DNA of 36,574 nt from Escherichia coli. GTDB lineage: Bacteria > Pseudomonadota > Gammaproteobacteria > Enterobacterales > Enterobacteriaceae. The notes beneath the pieces are model-generated. The model was not told the DNA's origin. It saw only the letters and a program-made list of their open reading frames with translations, and did no database searches. This document shows, one piece after another, positions 5,709 to 14,949 of the stretch. The stretch lies in NCBI RefSeq assembly GCF_003334335.1, contig NZ_QOWQ01000043.1. One strand, 5' to 3'. Position 1 is the stretch's first letter. Each line of letters begins with the position of its first letter. The translations under genes and the position numbers were made by a program.

Positions 5709-7186
5709 GCTTCGCTCTCCAGCGTGGCACTGGCGACGCGCATAACCTCATCCCAGGAGGTGTCACCGCTTATCACTTTTTGCAGGCCATTTTTGATTAA
5801 GGCCTTGTGTTGTTGCCGGACTAGTCGCTCCAGTGCTTGTTCATCCACATTTTCATGAATAGCGGCCCGTAATTCCGGCGTCACCACCATCATTTCGTGG
5901 ATCGCCATGCGCCCCTGATAGCCGGATTGATGGCAATGAGGGCAGCCTACGGGAGTGCCAATTGTTGTCACCGCGAGCTGATGATATTTAAACATCTGCG
6001 CTTGTTGGGGTGATACGGGCGTGAATTGTCGGCATTGCGGACACAGGCGACGAACCAGACGTTGCGCGATAATCCCTGCCAGGGAAGACGAAAGCAGGAA
6101 TGATTCGACGCCCATGTCGCGGAGCCGGGTCACTGCGCCTGATGCACTGTTAGTGTGGAGTGTTGAGAGTACCAGATGGCCGGTGAGCGAGGCCTGAACC
6201 GCAATCTGCGCGGTTTCTGTATCACGAATTTCCCCCACCATGACGACATCCGGGTCCTGGCGAAGTATGGCGCGCAGGCCGCGAGCGAAAGACATATCCA
6301 CACGGGTATTCACCTGCGTTTGCCCAATGCCTTCCAGCTCATATTCCACGGGATCTTCTACCGTCAGAATATTGCGGCCGGGAGTATTCAGCGCCGAAAG
6401 GATGGCGTAGAGCGTGGTGCTTTTACCGGAGCCTGTCGGCCCTGTCACCAGGATAATACCGTGCGGAAGCTGAATGAGATTTTCTAAATCCTGCTTATCC
6501 GCTGCCGTCATCCCCAGGTTGTTCAATGAAAGCTGGAGGCTGTTTTTATCCAGCAGGCGGAGTACGGCGCGTTCACCATAGATGGACGGCAGTGTGGATA
6601 CGCGGACATCTATGTTACGTCGCCCGATACGCAAACTAATTCTTCCATCCTGTGGAATACGTTTTTCGGCGATATCAAGACGAGCCATGACCTTAATTCG
6701 GGAGATAAGCAGTGCCGCCAGTTTTTTGTTTGGCTGTAAAATTGTCCGCAAAACGCCGTCGATGCGAAAACGGATCGACATTGTTTTTTCATAGGTTTCA
6801 ATGTGGATATCAGAGGCGGTTTCTTTGATGGCCTCACTCAAAATCGCATTGATCAAGCGGATAACCGGTGCCGCTGAATCTTCATTCAGGAGATCTTCAT
6901 TTGCGGGCATCTCTTCCGAAAGCGAGAGAAGATCGACGGATTGATCGATATCCTGCGCAATCTGTTGCGACTCACCGGTATTCTGATGGAATACCGCTTC
7001 CAGCCGAGCTTCAAAATCAGCCTGTGACAAGCTGGTCATGGTCTGGCACTGGCCAACCTGACGTTGAATATCGAGTAACCGCTCGAATGGCGTATCGGCG
7101 AGATAAATAATCTCGCCCTCTGAATAGAGATAACCAATTCGTTGTGCCAGCGCCCAACTGGCGGGGTACGGTGAGTGAATTCTCAT
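5705..7186 (-). CDS. gspE: type II secretion ATPase GspE
   Basis: 493 aa. Walker [11 protein letters not shown]-terminal tetracysteine motif (CPQC ... CPHC). ATGA overlap with gspF. Confidence 0.95.
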
Positions 7187-7195
7187 ATGAATGCC

Positions 7196-9127
7196 TCACC
7201 GTGACGATGGCGCAGGGGCGTGACTGTTGAACGTGTTTTCATCCAGCACCGGCAAATCTTCCGAGCCAACCAGCGCTTTTGATTTCCCGTCGATCCGCTG
7301 TTGTTGCTCCTGACGGTAACGGGTGTATTTCTCTTTTGACAGTGAGCGATAAACATCATCGTCACGGATAATCGTCGGACGGATAAATACCATCAGGTTG
7401 CGTTTAGCGCGCTCGGTGGAGGTATAGCGGAAGAGTTGCCCCACTAAAGGAATATCGCCAAGCAGAGGAACCTTTGACACTTGCTCTTTAGAAAAATCAT
7501 CCAGCAATCCGCCCAGGACCACCGTTTCACCGGTTTTGACCAGCACGGCGTTTTGAATAGTACGGGTATTAAACGTCGGGCCGAGCGTCGAGTTAGAGGA
7601 AGAGTCAACGCTGGAGACTTCCTGCTCTATTTCGAGCAACACCGCGTCGCCTTCATTGACCTGCGGAGTAACTTTGAGTTTTGTCCCCACCGTTTTGCGT
7701 TCGACGGTATTAAAGACGTTATCCCCTGAAGTGGTCTGTGACCCGGATAGCACCGGCACATCCTGCCCCACGTTGAAGGACGCGAGTTTATTATCCAGCG
7801 TTACGATGCTTGGGGTGGCGAGGATGTCATTTTTATTGTTACTGGCCAGCGCGGTAAGCAGTACTCCCCAGTCGCCATTGAAGAAGCCTGCGGCCATGCC
7901 ATTGTAGGCGCTAAACATATCCCAGGCAGGATTCGCGCTGGTGATCCCACCATTCTTTTTATAATCAGCCACACCTTGCGCAGCGTTAAAAATCGGTAAT
8001 CCGGTATTGGTAAATTGCTGTGCGCCAACGTTTTTATTCGCCCATTGCACGCCGAGGTTTAGTCCATTTCCATCCTGAACTTCAACGATGATTGCCTCAA
8101 CCAGCACCTGTGCACGGCGAATGTCCAGACGCGCAATTACCGTGGCGAGTTTTTCCTGGACGGACTGGTCAGCGGTAATGGCGACGTTATCCATCGCGCC
8201 AGAAGAGGAGGGCTTACGCGCATTCCCTTTTTCATCTTTCAGCTTTTCGGAAACACCGGTTAGCACTTCCACCAGATTCGTGGCTTTAGCATATTTCAGG
8301 TAATAAACCCGGGTATTTCCTTCCTCGCTCTCTTCGACATCAAGGCTTTTCAGTAATGAAGTGATGCGCTGGCGTGCTTTTTCCGGTCCACTGATGATAA
8401 GAGAGTTGGTTCGCTTATCCGCCACAATCTTCGCGGAGAGGAGGGCTGGCATCTGGCTTTTACCGTGGCTTTCGCTGATTAATTGATTAAGAATCTCGGC
8501 GAGATCTTCCGCTGACGCATATTCCAGATGAATAATTTGCTGCTTCTCTGTGCCGATGACATCAACGCGCTTTATGACTTCAATCAGTTTATTAATGGTG
8601 GAGGCACGACCGGTCAGAATAAGAACGTTGGAGGGTTCATAATGCACAACATTACCGACGCTACCCGCATCCATCATCTGGCGGAGCAGGGGGGCCAGGT
8701 CACGAGCAGGAACGTTCTCAAGCGGTACAATTCGGGTGACCAACTCATCACCTACGCCTGGACGAGAACTGTCAGCAATCATCCCTGGCGATGTTTTTAC
8801 ATTAGCTGAGCGAACCACTTTCAGAAAACCATTGTCCAGCGTGATCACGGAATAACCGTAAAGATCAAGAATACTTAAAAAGAACTGGTAGTACTCCTGT
8901 TGGCTAAACGTATCATTACTGCGTACGGAAATGGTTCCCTGTACCGAAGGGTCGATCAGGATCGTTTTGCCAAGATGCTGCCCCACTATTTCCACGAACT
9001 GGCGGATATCGGCGTTATTGAAGTTCGCGCCGTATTGTTCGTTCTCAGCGTGTCCTGCACAAGGCATGAGTAGTGCTGCCAGCAAGCAGCAGGTGATTTT
9101 ATTGAGTCCTTTCATGACGCAGTCCAT
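7196..9127 (-). CDS. gspD: type II secretion outer-membrane secretin GspD
   Basis: 643 aa ORF with conserved secretin C-terminal region ([14 protein letters not shown]). Signal peptide probably begins at the internal [23 protein letters not shown], so the true start may be 12 nt downstream of the ORF-track start. Confidence 0.9.
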
Positions 9128-9914
9128 TCATTCCTGTAAGTTCCCCGACGGAAACATTTATCAAGCGGGGTACGCCGTTGCGACGAATTGTAAACTGAGC
9201 ACTTTGTTGAGTTAGCAGTAAACTTAATGCCTGTGAAACCTCATCAGGGTGGGTCAGCGAAAGATTATTGATCCTGAGGGCGATATCCCCTGGTTGTAGC
9301 AAGCTGGTGGTAAATGCATTGAGGCCCTTACGAGGGTTCAATCGAAGCCCGTATATCTGTTCTCCATCACGTATAGGCGTGGCGATAATATAATCAGCGA
9401 GTACATTTTGACTTTCTGAATCAGGCTGCTTGATGATGTCAGGTAGCCCTGGATGGAGAGTTACTTTTTCGTAATGCCCGTGAGTTTCAAACACAACGCT
9501 GGTTTTATTTATTTTTCTAATAAACGTTCCCGGCGCTGACTCAAGGGCTTCGTTGAGGGAGTATCGCTTTTGTTCGCTCCCCTCATTAATTAAGACAAAA
9601 GAAGTCTCATCATTCGATGTGAGTACAATGCCATTAAGCGCTATAGAGAGCTTAGGTGTTTCCTGATTAACTGCCACGGGATTTGCATCTTTTACCCCAG
9701 CATGATTTTCGTTACGCCATAAAGCGGCAAGGCTGAAATCAGACTGAAATGCGTTTGTTGGTTGATTAATGATCTGTCCATTTTTAACTATAGTTGTATG
9801 GAAATAATTCACATTAAAAATAATCGACCCTATGCTTATAAATATAATCAATATATTGATGGCAGCATCTTTATTATGATTCGCCAGATGGAAGGGGAAA
9901 CGTAGTGTGGGCAC
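9099..9914 (-). CDS. gspC: type II secretion protein GspC
   Basis: 271 aa, N-terminal TM segment, first gene of the minus-strand operon. 3' end overlaps the gspD ORF by up to 29 nt. Confidence 0.85.
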
Positions 9915-10093
9915 GATGTATGTTCTAATAAAATAGATTGGGTGGGTTGTATATTGACGTTAGTATAAATAGTATTAATGCCGCTTGCATGAATCAAGCA
10001 AAATTTATTTATATTAGTAATATGTATTTAATTAATAAATACATACATTATTTTTATGATTAAGGATAATCAATAATTAAAACAGGAAGTTCT
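9915..10093. promoter_or_regulatory. AT-rich divergent control region between gspC and gspA
   Basis: 179-bp intergenic region that is conspicuously AT-rich by eye (runs of TATA, AATA, TTTA). The divergent start codons flank it. Known in K-12 as an H-NS-silenced bidirectional promoter region. Confidence 0.6.
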
Positions 10094-11563
10094 ATGTCTA
10101 CGAGAAGAGAAGTTATTCTTTCCTGGTTGTGTGAGAAACGTCAAACCTGGCGTCTATGCTATTTGTTGGGTGAGGCTGGAAGTGGAAAAACCTGGCTGGC
10201 GCAGCAACTGCAAAAAGATAAACATCGCCGTGTGATTACTTTAAGCCTCGTTGTTTCCTGGCAAGGTAAGGCCGCATGGATCGTTACCGACGATAACGCG
10301 GCTGAACAGGGCTGCCGTGACAGCGCCTGGACGCGAGATGAGATGGCGGGGCAATTACTGCATGCGCTTCATCGAACTGATAGTCGCTGCCCTCTTATTA
10401 TTATTGAAAATGCTCACCTGAATCACCGCCGCATACTTGATGATCTCCAACGCGCAATATCTCTTATTCCTGACGGTCAATTTTTGCTGATCGGCAGACC
10501 CGATCGAAAAGTCGAACGTGATTTTAAAAAACAGGGCATTGAACTTGTCTCGATAGGACGTCTGACGGAGCACGAACTTAAGGCAAGCATCCTTGAAGGT
10601 CAGAATATTGACCAACCCGATCTCCTTTTAACCGCCAGAGTTCTGAAACGGATAGCTTTATTATGTCGGGGCGATCGCAGAAAGCTGGCGCTTGCCGGCG
10701 AAACAATTCGCTTATTACAGCAAGCCGAGCAGACCAGCGTTTTCACAGCAAAACAATGGCGAATGATTTACCGCATATTGGGTGATAACCGCCCCCGGAA
10801 AATGCAGCTTGCCGTGGTGATGAGTGGAACCATTATCGCTCTTACCTGTGGTTGGCTACTGCTGTCCTCTTTTACAGCTACGTTACCCGTTCCTGCGTGG
10901 CTGATACCCGTAACGCCATTAGTTAAACAAGATATGACTAAGGATATTGCTCATGTGGTGATGCGCGATAGTGAGGCGCTAAGCGTGTTATACGGCGTAT
11001 GGGGGGACGAGGTCCCAGCTGATTCGGCCTGGTGCGATCAGGCAGTAAGAGCGGGGCTGGCATGTAAAAGTGGGAATGCTTCTTTACAAACATTGGTAGA
11101 TCAGAATTTGCCCTGGATCGCATCGCTTAAAGTCGGGGACAAAAAATTGCCTGTTGTGGTCGTTCGCGTCGGTGAGGCTAGCGTTGATGTCCTCGTAGGT
11201 CAGCAAACGTGGACGCTGACACATAAATGGTTTGAGTCGGTATGGACGGGTGATTATCTTCTGTTGTGGAAAATGTCGCCGGAAGGGGAGAGTACCATTA
11301 CGCGTGATAGCAGCGAGGAAGAGATTCTCTGGCTGGAAACGATGTTAAACCGCGCATTGCATATTTCGACAGAACCTTCGGCGGAGTGGCGTCCCTTGTT
11401 GGTAGAAAAAATAAAGCAATTTCAAAAAAGCCACCACTTGAAAACTGACGGTGTTGTTGGCTTTTCAACGTTAGTACATCTCTGGCAGGTGGCAGGGGAG
11501 AGTGCCTACTTATATCGGGATGAAGCAAATATTTCCCCGGAAACAACAGTGAAGGGGAAATGA
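10094..11563 (+). CDS. gspA: type II secretion accessory ATPase GspA (ExeA-like)
   Basis: 489 aa. Walker A GEAGSGKT near the N-terminus. TM segment mid-protein and a periplasmic C-terminal domain. Confidence 0.9.
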   Translation: MSTRREVILSWLCEKRQTWRLCYLLGEAGSGKTWLAQQLQKDKHRRVITLSLVVSWQGKAAWIVTDDNAAEQGCRDSAWTRDEMAGQLLHALHRTDSRCPLIIIENAHLNHRRILDDLQRAISLIPDGQFLLIGRPDRKVERDFKKQGIELVSIGRLTEHELKASILEGQNIDQPDLLLTARVLKRIALLCRGDRRKLALAGETIRLLQQAEQTSVFTAKQWRMIYRILGDNRPRKMQLAVVMSGTIIALTCGWLLLSSFTATLPVPAWLIPVTPLVKQDMTKDIAHVVMRDSEALSVLYGVWGDEVPADSAWCDQAVRAGLACKSGNASLQTLVDQNLPWIASLKVGDKKLPVVVVRVGEASVDVLVGQQTWTLTHKWFESVWTGDYLLLWKMSPEGESTITRDSSEEEILWLETMLNRALHISTEPSAEWRPLLVEKIKQFQKSHHLKTDGVVGFSTLVHLWQVAGESAYLYRDEANISPETTVKGK

Positions 11564-11564
11564 C

Positions 11565-11984
11565 ATGTTTGAATTCTATATCGCCGCGCGTGAGCAGAAA
11601 GAAACAGGTCACCCTGGTATCTTCTCCCGACAAAAACACAGCACCATAATATATGTAATTTGTTTATTACTGATTTGCCTGTGGTTTGCAGGAATGGTGC
11701 TGGTTGGTGGGTATGCCAGGCAGCTATGGGTGCTTTGGATAGTAAAAGCCGAAGTCACTGTAGAGGCTGAAACGCCCGCTTTTAAACAATCAACACAACA
11801 CTATTTCTTCAAAAAACAGCCACTCCCCGTCGTCGAATCCGTCGAGGAGGAAGATGACCCAGGCGTCGCGGTTGAGAATGCCCCCTCTTCTTCTGAAGAC
11901 GAAGAAAATACTGTGGAAGAAAGCGAAGAGAAAGCCGGTTTAAGAGAGCGTGTCAAAAATGCACTGAACGAACTTGAGAGATAA
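11565..11984 (+). CDS. gspB: type II secretion accessory protein GspB (ExeB-like)
   Basis: 139 aa. One TM segment (IIYVICLLLICLWFAGMVLVGGY) and a strongly acidic C-terminal tail. Start is 1 nt after the gspA stop (TGAcATG). Confidence 0.85.
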   Translation: MFEFYIAAREQKETGHPGIFSRQKHSTIIYVICLLLICLWFAGMVLVGGYARQLWVLWIVKAEVTVEAETPAFKQSTQHYFFKKQPLPVVESVEEEDDPGVAVENAPSSSEDEENTVEESEEKAGLRERVKNALNELER

Positions 11985-12016
11985 CCCGAAGGCTGTTTAC
12001 TTTACTAGCAATACGC

Positions 12017-12044
12017 TTGCGTTCGGTGGTTAAGTATGTATAAT
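12017..12044 (+). promoter_or_regulatory. S10 operon promoter
   Basis: TTGCGT at 12017-12022 and TATAAT at 12039-12044 with a 16-bp spacer, placed by eye. Lies about 180 nt upstream of rpsJ, consistent with the long S10 leader. Confidence 0.5.
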
Positions 12045-12533
<489 letters not shown>

Positions 12534-12553
12534 TCAGGTCATTGAGCGATTGA

Positions 12554-14949
<2,396 letters not shown>

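Follow-up and report, generated by a model that had tools for sequence, protein, structure and literature searches.

Genomic context and layout of the gspC-gspA spacer

The window, i.e. the whole stretch of 36,574 nucleotides (36.6 kb) analysed here, is E. coli K-12-type chromosome, and a 1.2-kb query taken around the spacer described below is 100% identical to MG1655. In the RefSeq gene order, chiA, bfd, bfr and the genes from gspO to gspC lie on the minus strand, followed on the plus strand by gspA-gspB and then by the S10 and spc ribosomal operons. Positions 9915-10093 correspond to the exact gap between the gspC and gspA open reading frames (ORFs), in agreement with the initial annotation, which had described two divergent operons separated by a 179-bp spacer. 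Two divergent operons, gspAB and gspC-O, are jointly controlled from this spacer; both belong to the chromosomal type II secretion system, known in K-12 as the “alpha” locus. No other type II secretion system in E. coli K-12 is complete, and this one is a textbook “cryptic” system with the spacer as its control point. The genes and translation signals that delimit the spacer are the following.

9099-9914, minus strand: gspC ORF, GTG start, annotated as GspC in RefSeq
9912-9914, minus strand: gspC start codon (GTG), a position kept as GTG or ATG in relatives
9915-10093, no strand assigned: gspC-gspA intergenic spacer, 179 bp, GC content 22.9%, defined by ORF boundaries, annotation and composition
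10084-10089, plus strand: good gspA Shine-Dalgarno sequence (AGGAAG), 4 nt from the ATG at 10094 and also kept in the sister taxon described below
10094-11563, plus strand: gspA ORF, ATG start, annotated as GspA in RefSeq

Upstream of the gspC GTG codon, sequence inspection revealed no obvious Shine-Dalgarno sequence.

The spacer is the same DNA, with no difference, as the gspA-gspC region of K-12 studied previously (Francetic, Belin, Badaut and Pugsley 2000; Shimada et al. 2014; Curran et al. 2017). Primers TC60 and TC59 (Curran et al. 2017) map to 9915-9940 and 10071-10093, the spacer's own ends, and the fragment used in the SlyA electrophoretic mobility shift assay (EMSA) of that study is identical to the 179-bp spacer. 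The AT-richness of the spacer, its silencing by H-NS, its divergent promoters and its SlyA counter-silencer are already published. We add a footprint of conserved and variable blocks, a negative test of A-tract phasing and curvature, the precise form of the palindrome and a measure of how far the AT-rich domain reaches.

The spacer is the most AT-rich part of the window

The spacer had been singled out as far more AT-rich than its flanks, and a windowed GC check bears this out, with 22.9% GC against 49.7% for the whole window; the sequence strings that had been quoted are also present. Only three of the 36,396 possible 179-bp windows, all of them overlapping, have a lower GC content, and the spacer is essentially the lowest point in 36.6 kb. 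The next distinct minimum (30.7%) corresponds to the adjacent 5' end of gspC. Composition is uneven within the spacer: the gspA-proximal part (10003-10093) contains 14% GC, and 40-bp windows give 5-15% over 10000-10080 and about 30-33% over 9920-10000. TpA steps account for 16.9% of dinucleotides in the spacer (density 0.169), compared with a window mean of 0.047, which is about 3.6 times the mean and essentially the maximum of the window.

AT-richness is not confined to the spacer. The 40-bp GC profile revealed a second lobe inside gspC.

9760-9880, no strand assigned: second AT-rich lobe, within the first ~50 codons of gspC, GC content 17-28%

The AT-rich domain consequently reaches about 150 bp into gspC, and an island of normal GC content around the gspC start separates this lobe from the spacer. 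The lobe is probably part of the H-NS-bound domain and of the “promoter island” discussed below. The flanking gsp genes have a normal GC content, and the locus as a whole is therefore not compositionally foreign.

A predicted divergent pair of sigma-70 promoters

Genomic SELEX with the sigma-70 holoenzyme yielded promoter assignments for gspA as well as for gspC, with the spacer marked “HNS” (Shimada et al. 2014, PMC3946193). We mapped these published elements, together with the SlyA site proposed by Curran et al. (2017), onto the window.

9969-9974, minus strand: predicted gspC -10 element TACTAT, from TTGATT-17-TACTAT (PMC3946193)
9992-9997, minus strand: predicted gspC -35 element TTGATT, 17 bp from the -10 element (PMC3946193)
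10009-10020, no strand assigned: proposed SlyA site TTATATTAGTAA, of the form TTA-N6-TAA (PMC5797941), between the two -35 hexamers
10032-10037, plus strand: predicted gspA -35 element TTAATA, from TTAATA-17-TATGAT (PMC3946193)
10055-10060, plus strand: predicted gspA -10 element TATGAT, from a consensus scan and PMC3946193, in conserved block R (see below)

The spacer carries a predicted divergent sigma-70 promoter pair, with hexamers at a spacing of 16-18 bp present on both strands. The gspC promoter runs leftward (9997 to 9969) and the gspA promoter rightward (10032 to 10060), so that the -35 elements of the two back-to-back promoters are 34 bp apart. Our consensus scan found the gspA promoter independently (9 of 12 consensus positions), whereas the gspC promoter matches only 8 of 12 positions and falls below the scan threshold. 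The expectation that the spacer holds both promoters agrees with published assignments in both directions and, for gspA, with the scan as well, the hexamers themselves being predictions, since a limited literature search found neither a mapped transcription start for either promoter nor an H-NS footprint. From the positions of the hexamers, transcription would start at ~9962 on the minus strand and ~10067 on the plus strand, giving leaders of roughly 48 nt for gspC and 27 nt for gspA.

The gspA/gspC region is also listed as a 392-bp “promoter island” (Panyukov et al. 2013, PMC3661553). The density of -10-like hexamers in the spacer is indeed 11 times the window mean, a likeness to the islands described by Panyukov and Ozoline (2013). 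This excess vanishes against dinucleotide shuffles, with 13 promoter-like hexamers observed against 15.9 +/- 3.4 expected, and the consensus scan counted 4 promoters against 2.5 +/- 1.7. We therefore rejected the “promoter island” as a sequence-specific property of the spacer: dinucleotide composition accounts in full for the excess of hexamers seen here. A further difference is that two specific promoter blocks are under evolutionary constraint (see below), and the region is therefore more than a diffuse island.

H-NS silencing and its partial relief by SlyA

The system is cryptic in K-12 and becomes derepressed, with secretion of ChiA, when H-NS is absent (Francetic et al. 2000, as cited in PMC5797941, PMC2649431 and PMC5435950). 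As tabulated in PMC5797941, gspCDEF is bound by H-NS in two ChIP data sets, those of Kahramanoglou and Oshima. An IPOD-HR occupancy peak falls within the spacer, and the same study stated that the precise location of H-NS binding had been unknown. The proposal that the spacer is an H-NS target, in line with the silencing of gsp in K-12, thus agrees with the published ChIP data, with the occupancy peak and with derepression without H-NS. The high-affinity H-NS motif tCGATAAATT (Lang et al. 2007) has four matches with at most two mismatches in 9780-10110, compared with 37 over all 36.6 kb. One of the four lies in the spacer proper and three in the gspC lobe; the best matches 8 of 10 positions, and this enrichment tracks composition.

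SlyA binds the exact 179-bp fragment in EMSA with an apparent Kd of about 50-100 nM, and its overproduction raised gspCDEF 2.4-fold (Curran et al. 2017, PMC5797941). The anti-silencer that the initial annotation had described as unknown is in this respect not wholly so. The authors placed the proposed site “79 bp upstream of gspA” (PMC5797941), and TTATATTAGTAA is the sole TTA-N6-TAA site of the spacer, among 8 such sites (16 strand-hits) in the whole window. The effect of SlyA is modest and was observed on overproduction.

We consider it very probable that the region is best explained as a divergent spacer silenced by H-NS, carrying two sigma-70 promoters and partly relieved by SlyA. Two back-to-back sigma-70 promoters within one spacer would serve gspAB and gspC-O. 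H-NS would bind the AT- and TpA-rich DNA around and between them, i.e. the 10000-10080 core and the 9760-9880 lobe, and the resulting nucleoprotein complex would cover both promoters and keep both operons silent under laboratory conditions. Nucleation may take place in the 10000-10080 core, followed by bridging or spreading to the gspC lobe, and the two-lobed shape of the AT-rich domain appears compatible with such a course. H-NS would recognize this DNA through AT/TpA composition and groove shape and not through static curvature. Removal of H-NS relieves silencing and so, in part, does SlyA, a MarR-family counter-silencer acting probably at or near TTATATTAGTAA between the promoters. Within this scheme, the experiments of others established silencing through H-NS, occupancy of the spacer in vivo, binding of RNA polymerase in vitro, and SlyA binding with modest activation; our analysis established the composition, located the published elements, and showed that the A-tracts are not phased and that the promoter and leader blocks are constrained. 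The feature is real and the main interpretation of the initial annotation is right; what we contribute is a refinement and not a discovery. Most of the checks proposed in the initial annotation have been carried out by others, namely H-NS ChIP, RNA polymerase binding and a counter-silencer, and start sites in hns mutants may have been mapped as well.

Conserved promoter blocks flank a fast-evolving core

GspA has very few relatives, and a search of genome contigs gave five loci. One of them, assigned to “Flavobacterium paronense”, was set aside as uninformative: its contig is a contaminant that resembles E. coli and is riddled with single-base deletions. In another (P0009/L022, 93% GspA identity), the spacer is identical to that of K-12. 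A real footprint came from a sister taxon (L010/L029), in which gspC and gspA are 77-79% identical to K-12 and the spacer has a GC content of 23.9%; its haplotype was absent from all complete E. coli genomes searched. Alignment with this taxon divides the spacer into three parts.

9915-10015, no strand assigned: conserved block L, comprising the gspC leader, the gspC core promoter and an upstream A/T stretch, 92.1% identity to the sister taxon
10016-10047, no strand assigned: fast-evolving core, 32 bp, 58-68% identity to the sister taxon, with one indel
10048-10093, no strand assigned: conserved block R, comprising the gspA -10 element, leader and ribosome-binding site, 89.1% identity to the sister taxon

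Identity at third codon positions, used for calibration, is 63% for gspC/gspA and 82% for gspD. Conservation of block L is significant against both values (P = 2e-11 and P = 3e-3, respectively), as is that of blocks L and R together against neutral expectation (P = 5e-15 at 63%; P = 1e-3 at 82%, gspD). In essence, a single sister taxon (L010 = L029) underlies the footprint, supplemented by a group that aligns loosely and has about 42% GspA identity. At 40-43% GspA identity, relatives share the synteny gspE-D-C, then gspA-B, then rpsJ. The AT-rich divergent spacer recurs in distant relatives in a less extreme form, with a GC content of 34-39%, and 28% in Trabulsiella, against about 50% for the loci. 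The gspC -10/-35 block is recognisably retained in relatives with 40-75% GspA identity, except Trabulsiella, as AATA[G/A]TATTA around the -10 element and AAGCAAG / ATCAAGC around the -35 element.

Within E. coli, 3,137 of 5,426 complete genomes contain the region, and all full-length copies are at least 97.9% identical over 291 bp. The most divergent alleles carry two singleton changes in the spacer, one in the proposed SlyA site (where one allele reads TTATATTGGTAA) and one in a palindrome arm, and the flanking coding DNA varies more. In those metagenomic E. coli contigs that differ by 3-4% in their 200-bp flanks, the spacer shows 0-1 differences; at the flank rates, the chance of zero differences in 179 bp is about P = 0.002-0.004, the contigs not being independent lineages.

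Blocks L and R are conserved and the core diverges, which indicates that selection preserves the core promoters and leaders. The proposed SlyA site, overlapped by the core, is lost in the sister taxon (TTATATTCAGTT), and the gspA -35 element, which the core contains, is not conserved there either (TTAATA to TCAATA). From these alignments, the proposed SlyA site, the palindrome described below and the gspA -35 element lie in freely changing DNA. The footprint separates these free parts of the spacer from the selected ones, and such a block map would be helpful for the design of promoter mutants or in a search for the physiological inducer.

A perfect palindrome within the core

The AT block TTAATTAATAAAT, previously described as near-palindromic, forms the centre of a longer inverted repeat; its palindromy was confirmed, while the qualifier “near” has to be dropped, the repeat being perfect.

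10021-10045, no strand assigned: perfect inverted repeat TATGTATTTA-ATTAA-TAAATACATA (10-5-10, 25 bp), overlapping the gspA -35 element

A dedicated dimeric repressor or activator bound to this palindrome over the gspA -35 element could be the real signal-responsive switch of the locus, with H-NS as a backdrop. The position of the repeat, over the -35 element and next to the SlyA site, would suit such a regulator, and the palindrome is almost invariant within E. coli; a metagenome scan for further haplotypes of the core returned the two known types only. In the sister taxon, a change of GTAT to GCAT in one arm is mirrored by ATAC to ATGC in the other. Against this, the sister-taxon version is imperfect, with a best perfect arm of 6, and is shifted by an indel; no part of the spacer is less conserved than the 32 bp that hold the repeat; and one arm is broken in one E. 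coli allele. Arms of 10 or more occur in 2.15% of dinucleotide shuffles, which makes the repeat moderately unusual for its composition, but P of about 0.02 is weak given the many features examined. None of the regulator consensus sequences compared (TyrR, ArgR, Fur, LexA, LacI-type, NagC/Mlc, FNR and IHF), fits the palindrome. We therefore regard a palindrome-bound switch as unlikely, and it is equally doubtful that the fast-evolving core with its palindrome is the operator of a lineage-specific dimeric regulator. If it were, this regulator would supply the missing physiological signal, e.g. a chitin- or GlcNAc-linked or a host-linked one, and turnover of the core between sister taxa would reflect regulatory rewiring and not neutrality.

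Iron control and other regulatory links

Two sequences resembling a Fur box were found in the AT-rich domain.

9837-9855, plus strand: best Fur-box-like match inside gspC, 14/19, candidate for the intragenic site shifted by Fur
10059-10077, plus strand: Fur-box-like match, 13/19, over the gspA -10 element and start region, weak and speculative

Fur bound at both would couple gsp to iron, which would fit the neighbouring bfd-bfr genes. In vitro evidence exists for an oligonucleotide with a predicted intragenic gspC site, which Fur shifted in a gel (Chen et al. 2007, PMC2189734); 9837-9855 is probably this site. The same authors, however, give the function of intragenic sites as unknown, and we found no report of Fur-dependent gsp expression in the literature. 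Moreover, about 12 comparable matches to 19-bp GATAATGATAATCATTATC-like Fur boxes occur across the window, and a resemblance to the Fur box is common to all AT-rich DNA. Control of gsp by iron thus seems quite improbable, even with one match overlapping the gspA -10 element. A link between gsp and BglJ-RcsB, the activator of the co-silenced substrate gene chiA, was also considered and rejected; no gsp gene is named in the BglJ-RcsB paper.

Predicted lack of intrinsic curvature in the spacer

H-NS is classically associated with curved DNA. The spacer had been described as containing phased A/T tracts, and in a curvature-driven version of silencing such helically phased tracts would bend it statically, the bend recruiting H-NS. 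A few A-tracts are present, but the spacings between their centres are irregular. At 10-11.5 bp, the Fourier power of AA/TT steps amounts to 0.17, whereas dinucleotide shuffles give 0.54 +/- 0.31 and 95% of them score higher. The curvature check that had been suggested gave a mean of 9.6 degrees for the spacer in a wedge model, against a window mean of 9.7; the profile from this model is treated as a cross-check only. Tract spacing, Fourier power against shuffles and the wedge model thus predicted no intrinsic curvature of the spacer, and the claim of phasing was not borne out. Flexible TpA steps dominate instead, and coherent curvature is improbable at H-NS sites rich in TpA (Lang et al. 2007). 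In agreement with that study, H-NS recognition at the spacer is unlikely to depend on static curvature, and its targeting cannot be attributed to phased A-tract curvature. The chance that a static bend recruits H-NS here is accordingly very small.

AT-richness as a by-product, and encoded products

The AT-richness could also be a passive by-product of horizontal acquisition or of a mutational bias in non-coding DNA, with no role beyond that of ordinary promoters. The restriction of the gsp locus to about 58% of complete E. coli genomes, the scarcity of GspA relatives and the fact that composition explains the promoter-like hexamer counts would be in keeping with such an origin. Three observations speak against it and make it highly improbable: blocks of the spacer are more conserved than flanking coding DNA, both between and within species; protein occupancy in vivo and dependence on H-NS are published; and the flanking gsp genes have a normal GC content.

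That the spacer encodes a small RNA, a leader structure or terminator, or a small protein can be practically dismissed, even though a scan flagged a terminator-like hairpin with a T-rich tail (GCTTG-7-CAAGC, 9983-9999) and short ORFs of 21-49 aa overlap the spacer: the best Rfam match, an animal miRNA family, reaches 21.7 bits against a gathering score of 74, so that no Rfam match to a structured RNA comes near threshold, and the short ORFs begin with TTG and translate low-complexity A/T sequence. The hairpin was rejected as an intrinsic terminator on account of its stem of 5 bp, the lack of a co-oriented (plus-strand) gene upstream and its disruption without compensation in the sister taxon. 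Among the short ORFs examined in the spacer, none was credible.

Comparison with other H-NS-silenced loci

The divergent H-NS-silenced spacer resembles bgl and proU (Lang et al. 2007; Bouffartigues et al. 2007) in its TpA-containing AT-rich DNA, with tCGATAAATT matches among AT-rich sequence of lower affinity, and in the presence of an AT-rich lobe downstream of a start codon. It differs from them in that the gsp matches are no better than 8/10 and in that both directions are silenced from one spacer. Parallels are also found in the AT-rich spacers shared by the divergent units hlyE-C0299, slyA-ydhIJK and ssuE-elfA of E. coli K-12, which are silenced by H-NS, counter-silenced by SlyA, and likewise show H-NS in ChIP, SlyA binding at 50-100 nM and a TTA-N6-TAA-like site. 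Compared with these, the effect of SlyA on gsp is small (2.4-fold), and the sister taxon does not share the proposed site.

The control region of T2SS-beta in ETEC is reportedly that of yghJ-pppA-yghG-gspC-M. This type II secretion cluster is likewise repressed by H-NS (Yang et al. 2007, as cited). It is, however, another locus, with a paralogous gene set that has no divergent gspAB partner.

Divergence between haplotypes and translation start of gspC

Window positions 6441-13753 were compared with the contig L029, which carries the same sister-taxon haplotype as L010. Divergence between the sister taxon and K-12 was sharply centred on gspC-gspA-gspB, where identity was 72-79% overall and about 63% at third codon positions. 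By comparison, gspD and gspE were 91-93% identical (82% at third positions), and identity was 97-99.8% both in the gspB-rpsJ spacer and across the ribosomal genes that directly follow gspB. The sister-taxon haplotype was absent among 5,426 complete E. coli genomes. The divergence of gspC-gspA-gspB suggests a deep second haplotype or a recombination import, or else that GspA, GspB and GspC evolve unusually fast.

The following leader precedes gspC:
9915-9962, minus strand: gspC leader

The start codon of gspC is GTG, and the RNA just upstream reads ...CCCACCCAAUCUAUUUUAUUAGAACAUACAUC-GUG, with no recognisable Shine-Dalgarno sequence ahead of the GTG in this leader. Despite this absence, the sister taxon shares a 26-nt stretch of the leader (9935-9960) without a single change. 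Weak translation initiation of gspC may be an added cause of gsp crypticity.

IS1 insertions and deletions at the gsp locus

Independent IS1 events were observed at the gsp locus of at least three strains:
window about 9640: IS1 within gspC, about 270 bp in, strain PSS-13 (L002)
gspL to gspA: deletion with IS1 alongside, strain MRE162 (L003)
window 9926: IS1 upstream of gspC, 12 bp from its start, strain PK8217 (L009)

PK8217 also lacks the remainder of the spacer, and the deletion takes in the 5' end of gspA. IS1 favours AT-rich DNA, and these events are consistent both with this preference and with a silent locus in decay.

Candidate sites inside gspC and gspA

A perfect palindrome lies in the coding region:
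9846-9860, inside gspC: 14-bp palindrome ATCAATATATTGAT

It is overlapped by an exact match, AATCAATATATTG at 9846-9858, to the IHF consensus (WATCAANNNNTTR), by two H-NS-motif matches (each 8/10) and by the best Fur-like match in gspC. Genomic SELEX placed sigma-38 and sigma-28 holoenzyme peaks within gspC and gspA, at published coordinates 3453834, 3454168 and 3452166 (PMC5493296). These peaks hint that the AT-rich 5' lobe of gspC (9760-9880) contains promoters of an intragenic or antisense kind.

Anti-silencing of gsp and chiA

The gene of the gsp substrate, chiA, is located upstream of the window start region; it is co-silenced by H-NS and activated by BglJ-RcsB (PMC3950696). Because gsp is not mentioned in the BglJ-RcsB paper and SlyA is the sole counter-silencer reported for gspC, different anti-silencers may act on the secretion machine and on its cargo.

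Other sequences

The 12-kb contig NZ_JAUFQN010000012.1 (L017) is labelled Flavobacterium paronense CECT 8460. It carries E. coli K-12-like gspC-gspA DNA with many single-base deletions. Almost certainly, this contig is a contaminant of the CECT 8460 assembly, made of uncorrected long reads, rather than Flavobacterium DNA.

Beyond the gsp junction, the next lowest GC contents in the window were found at 36242-36420 (33.5%) and 27496-27674 (34.1%). Predicted curvature for the whole window, from a wedge model, peaked at about 36395.
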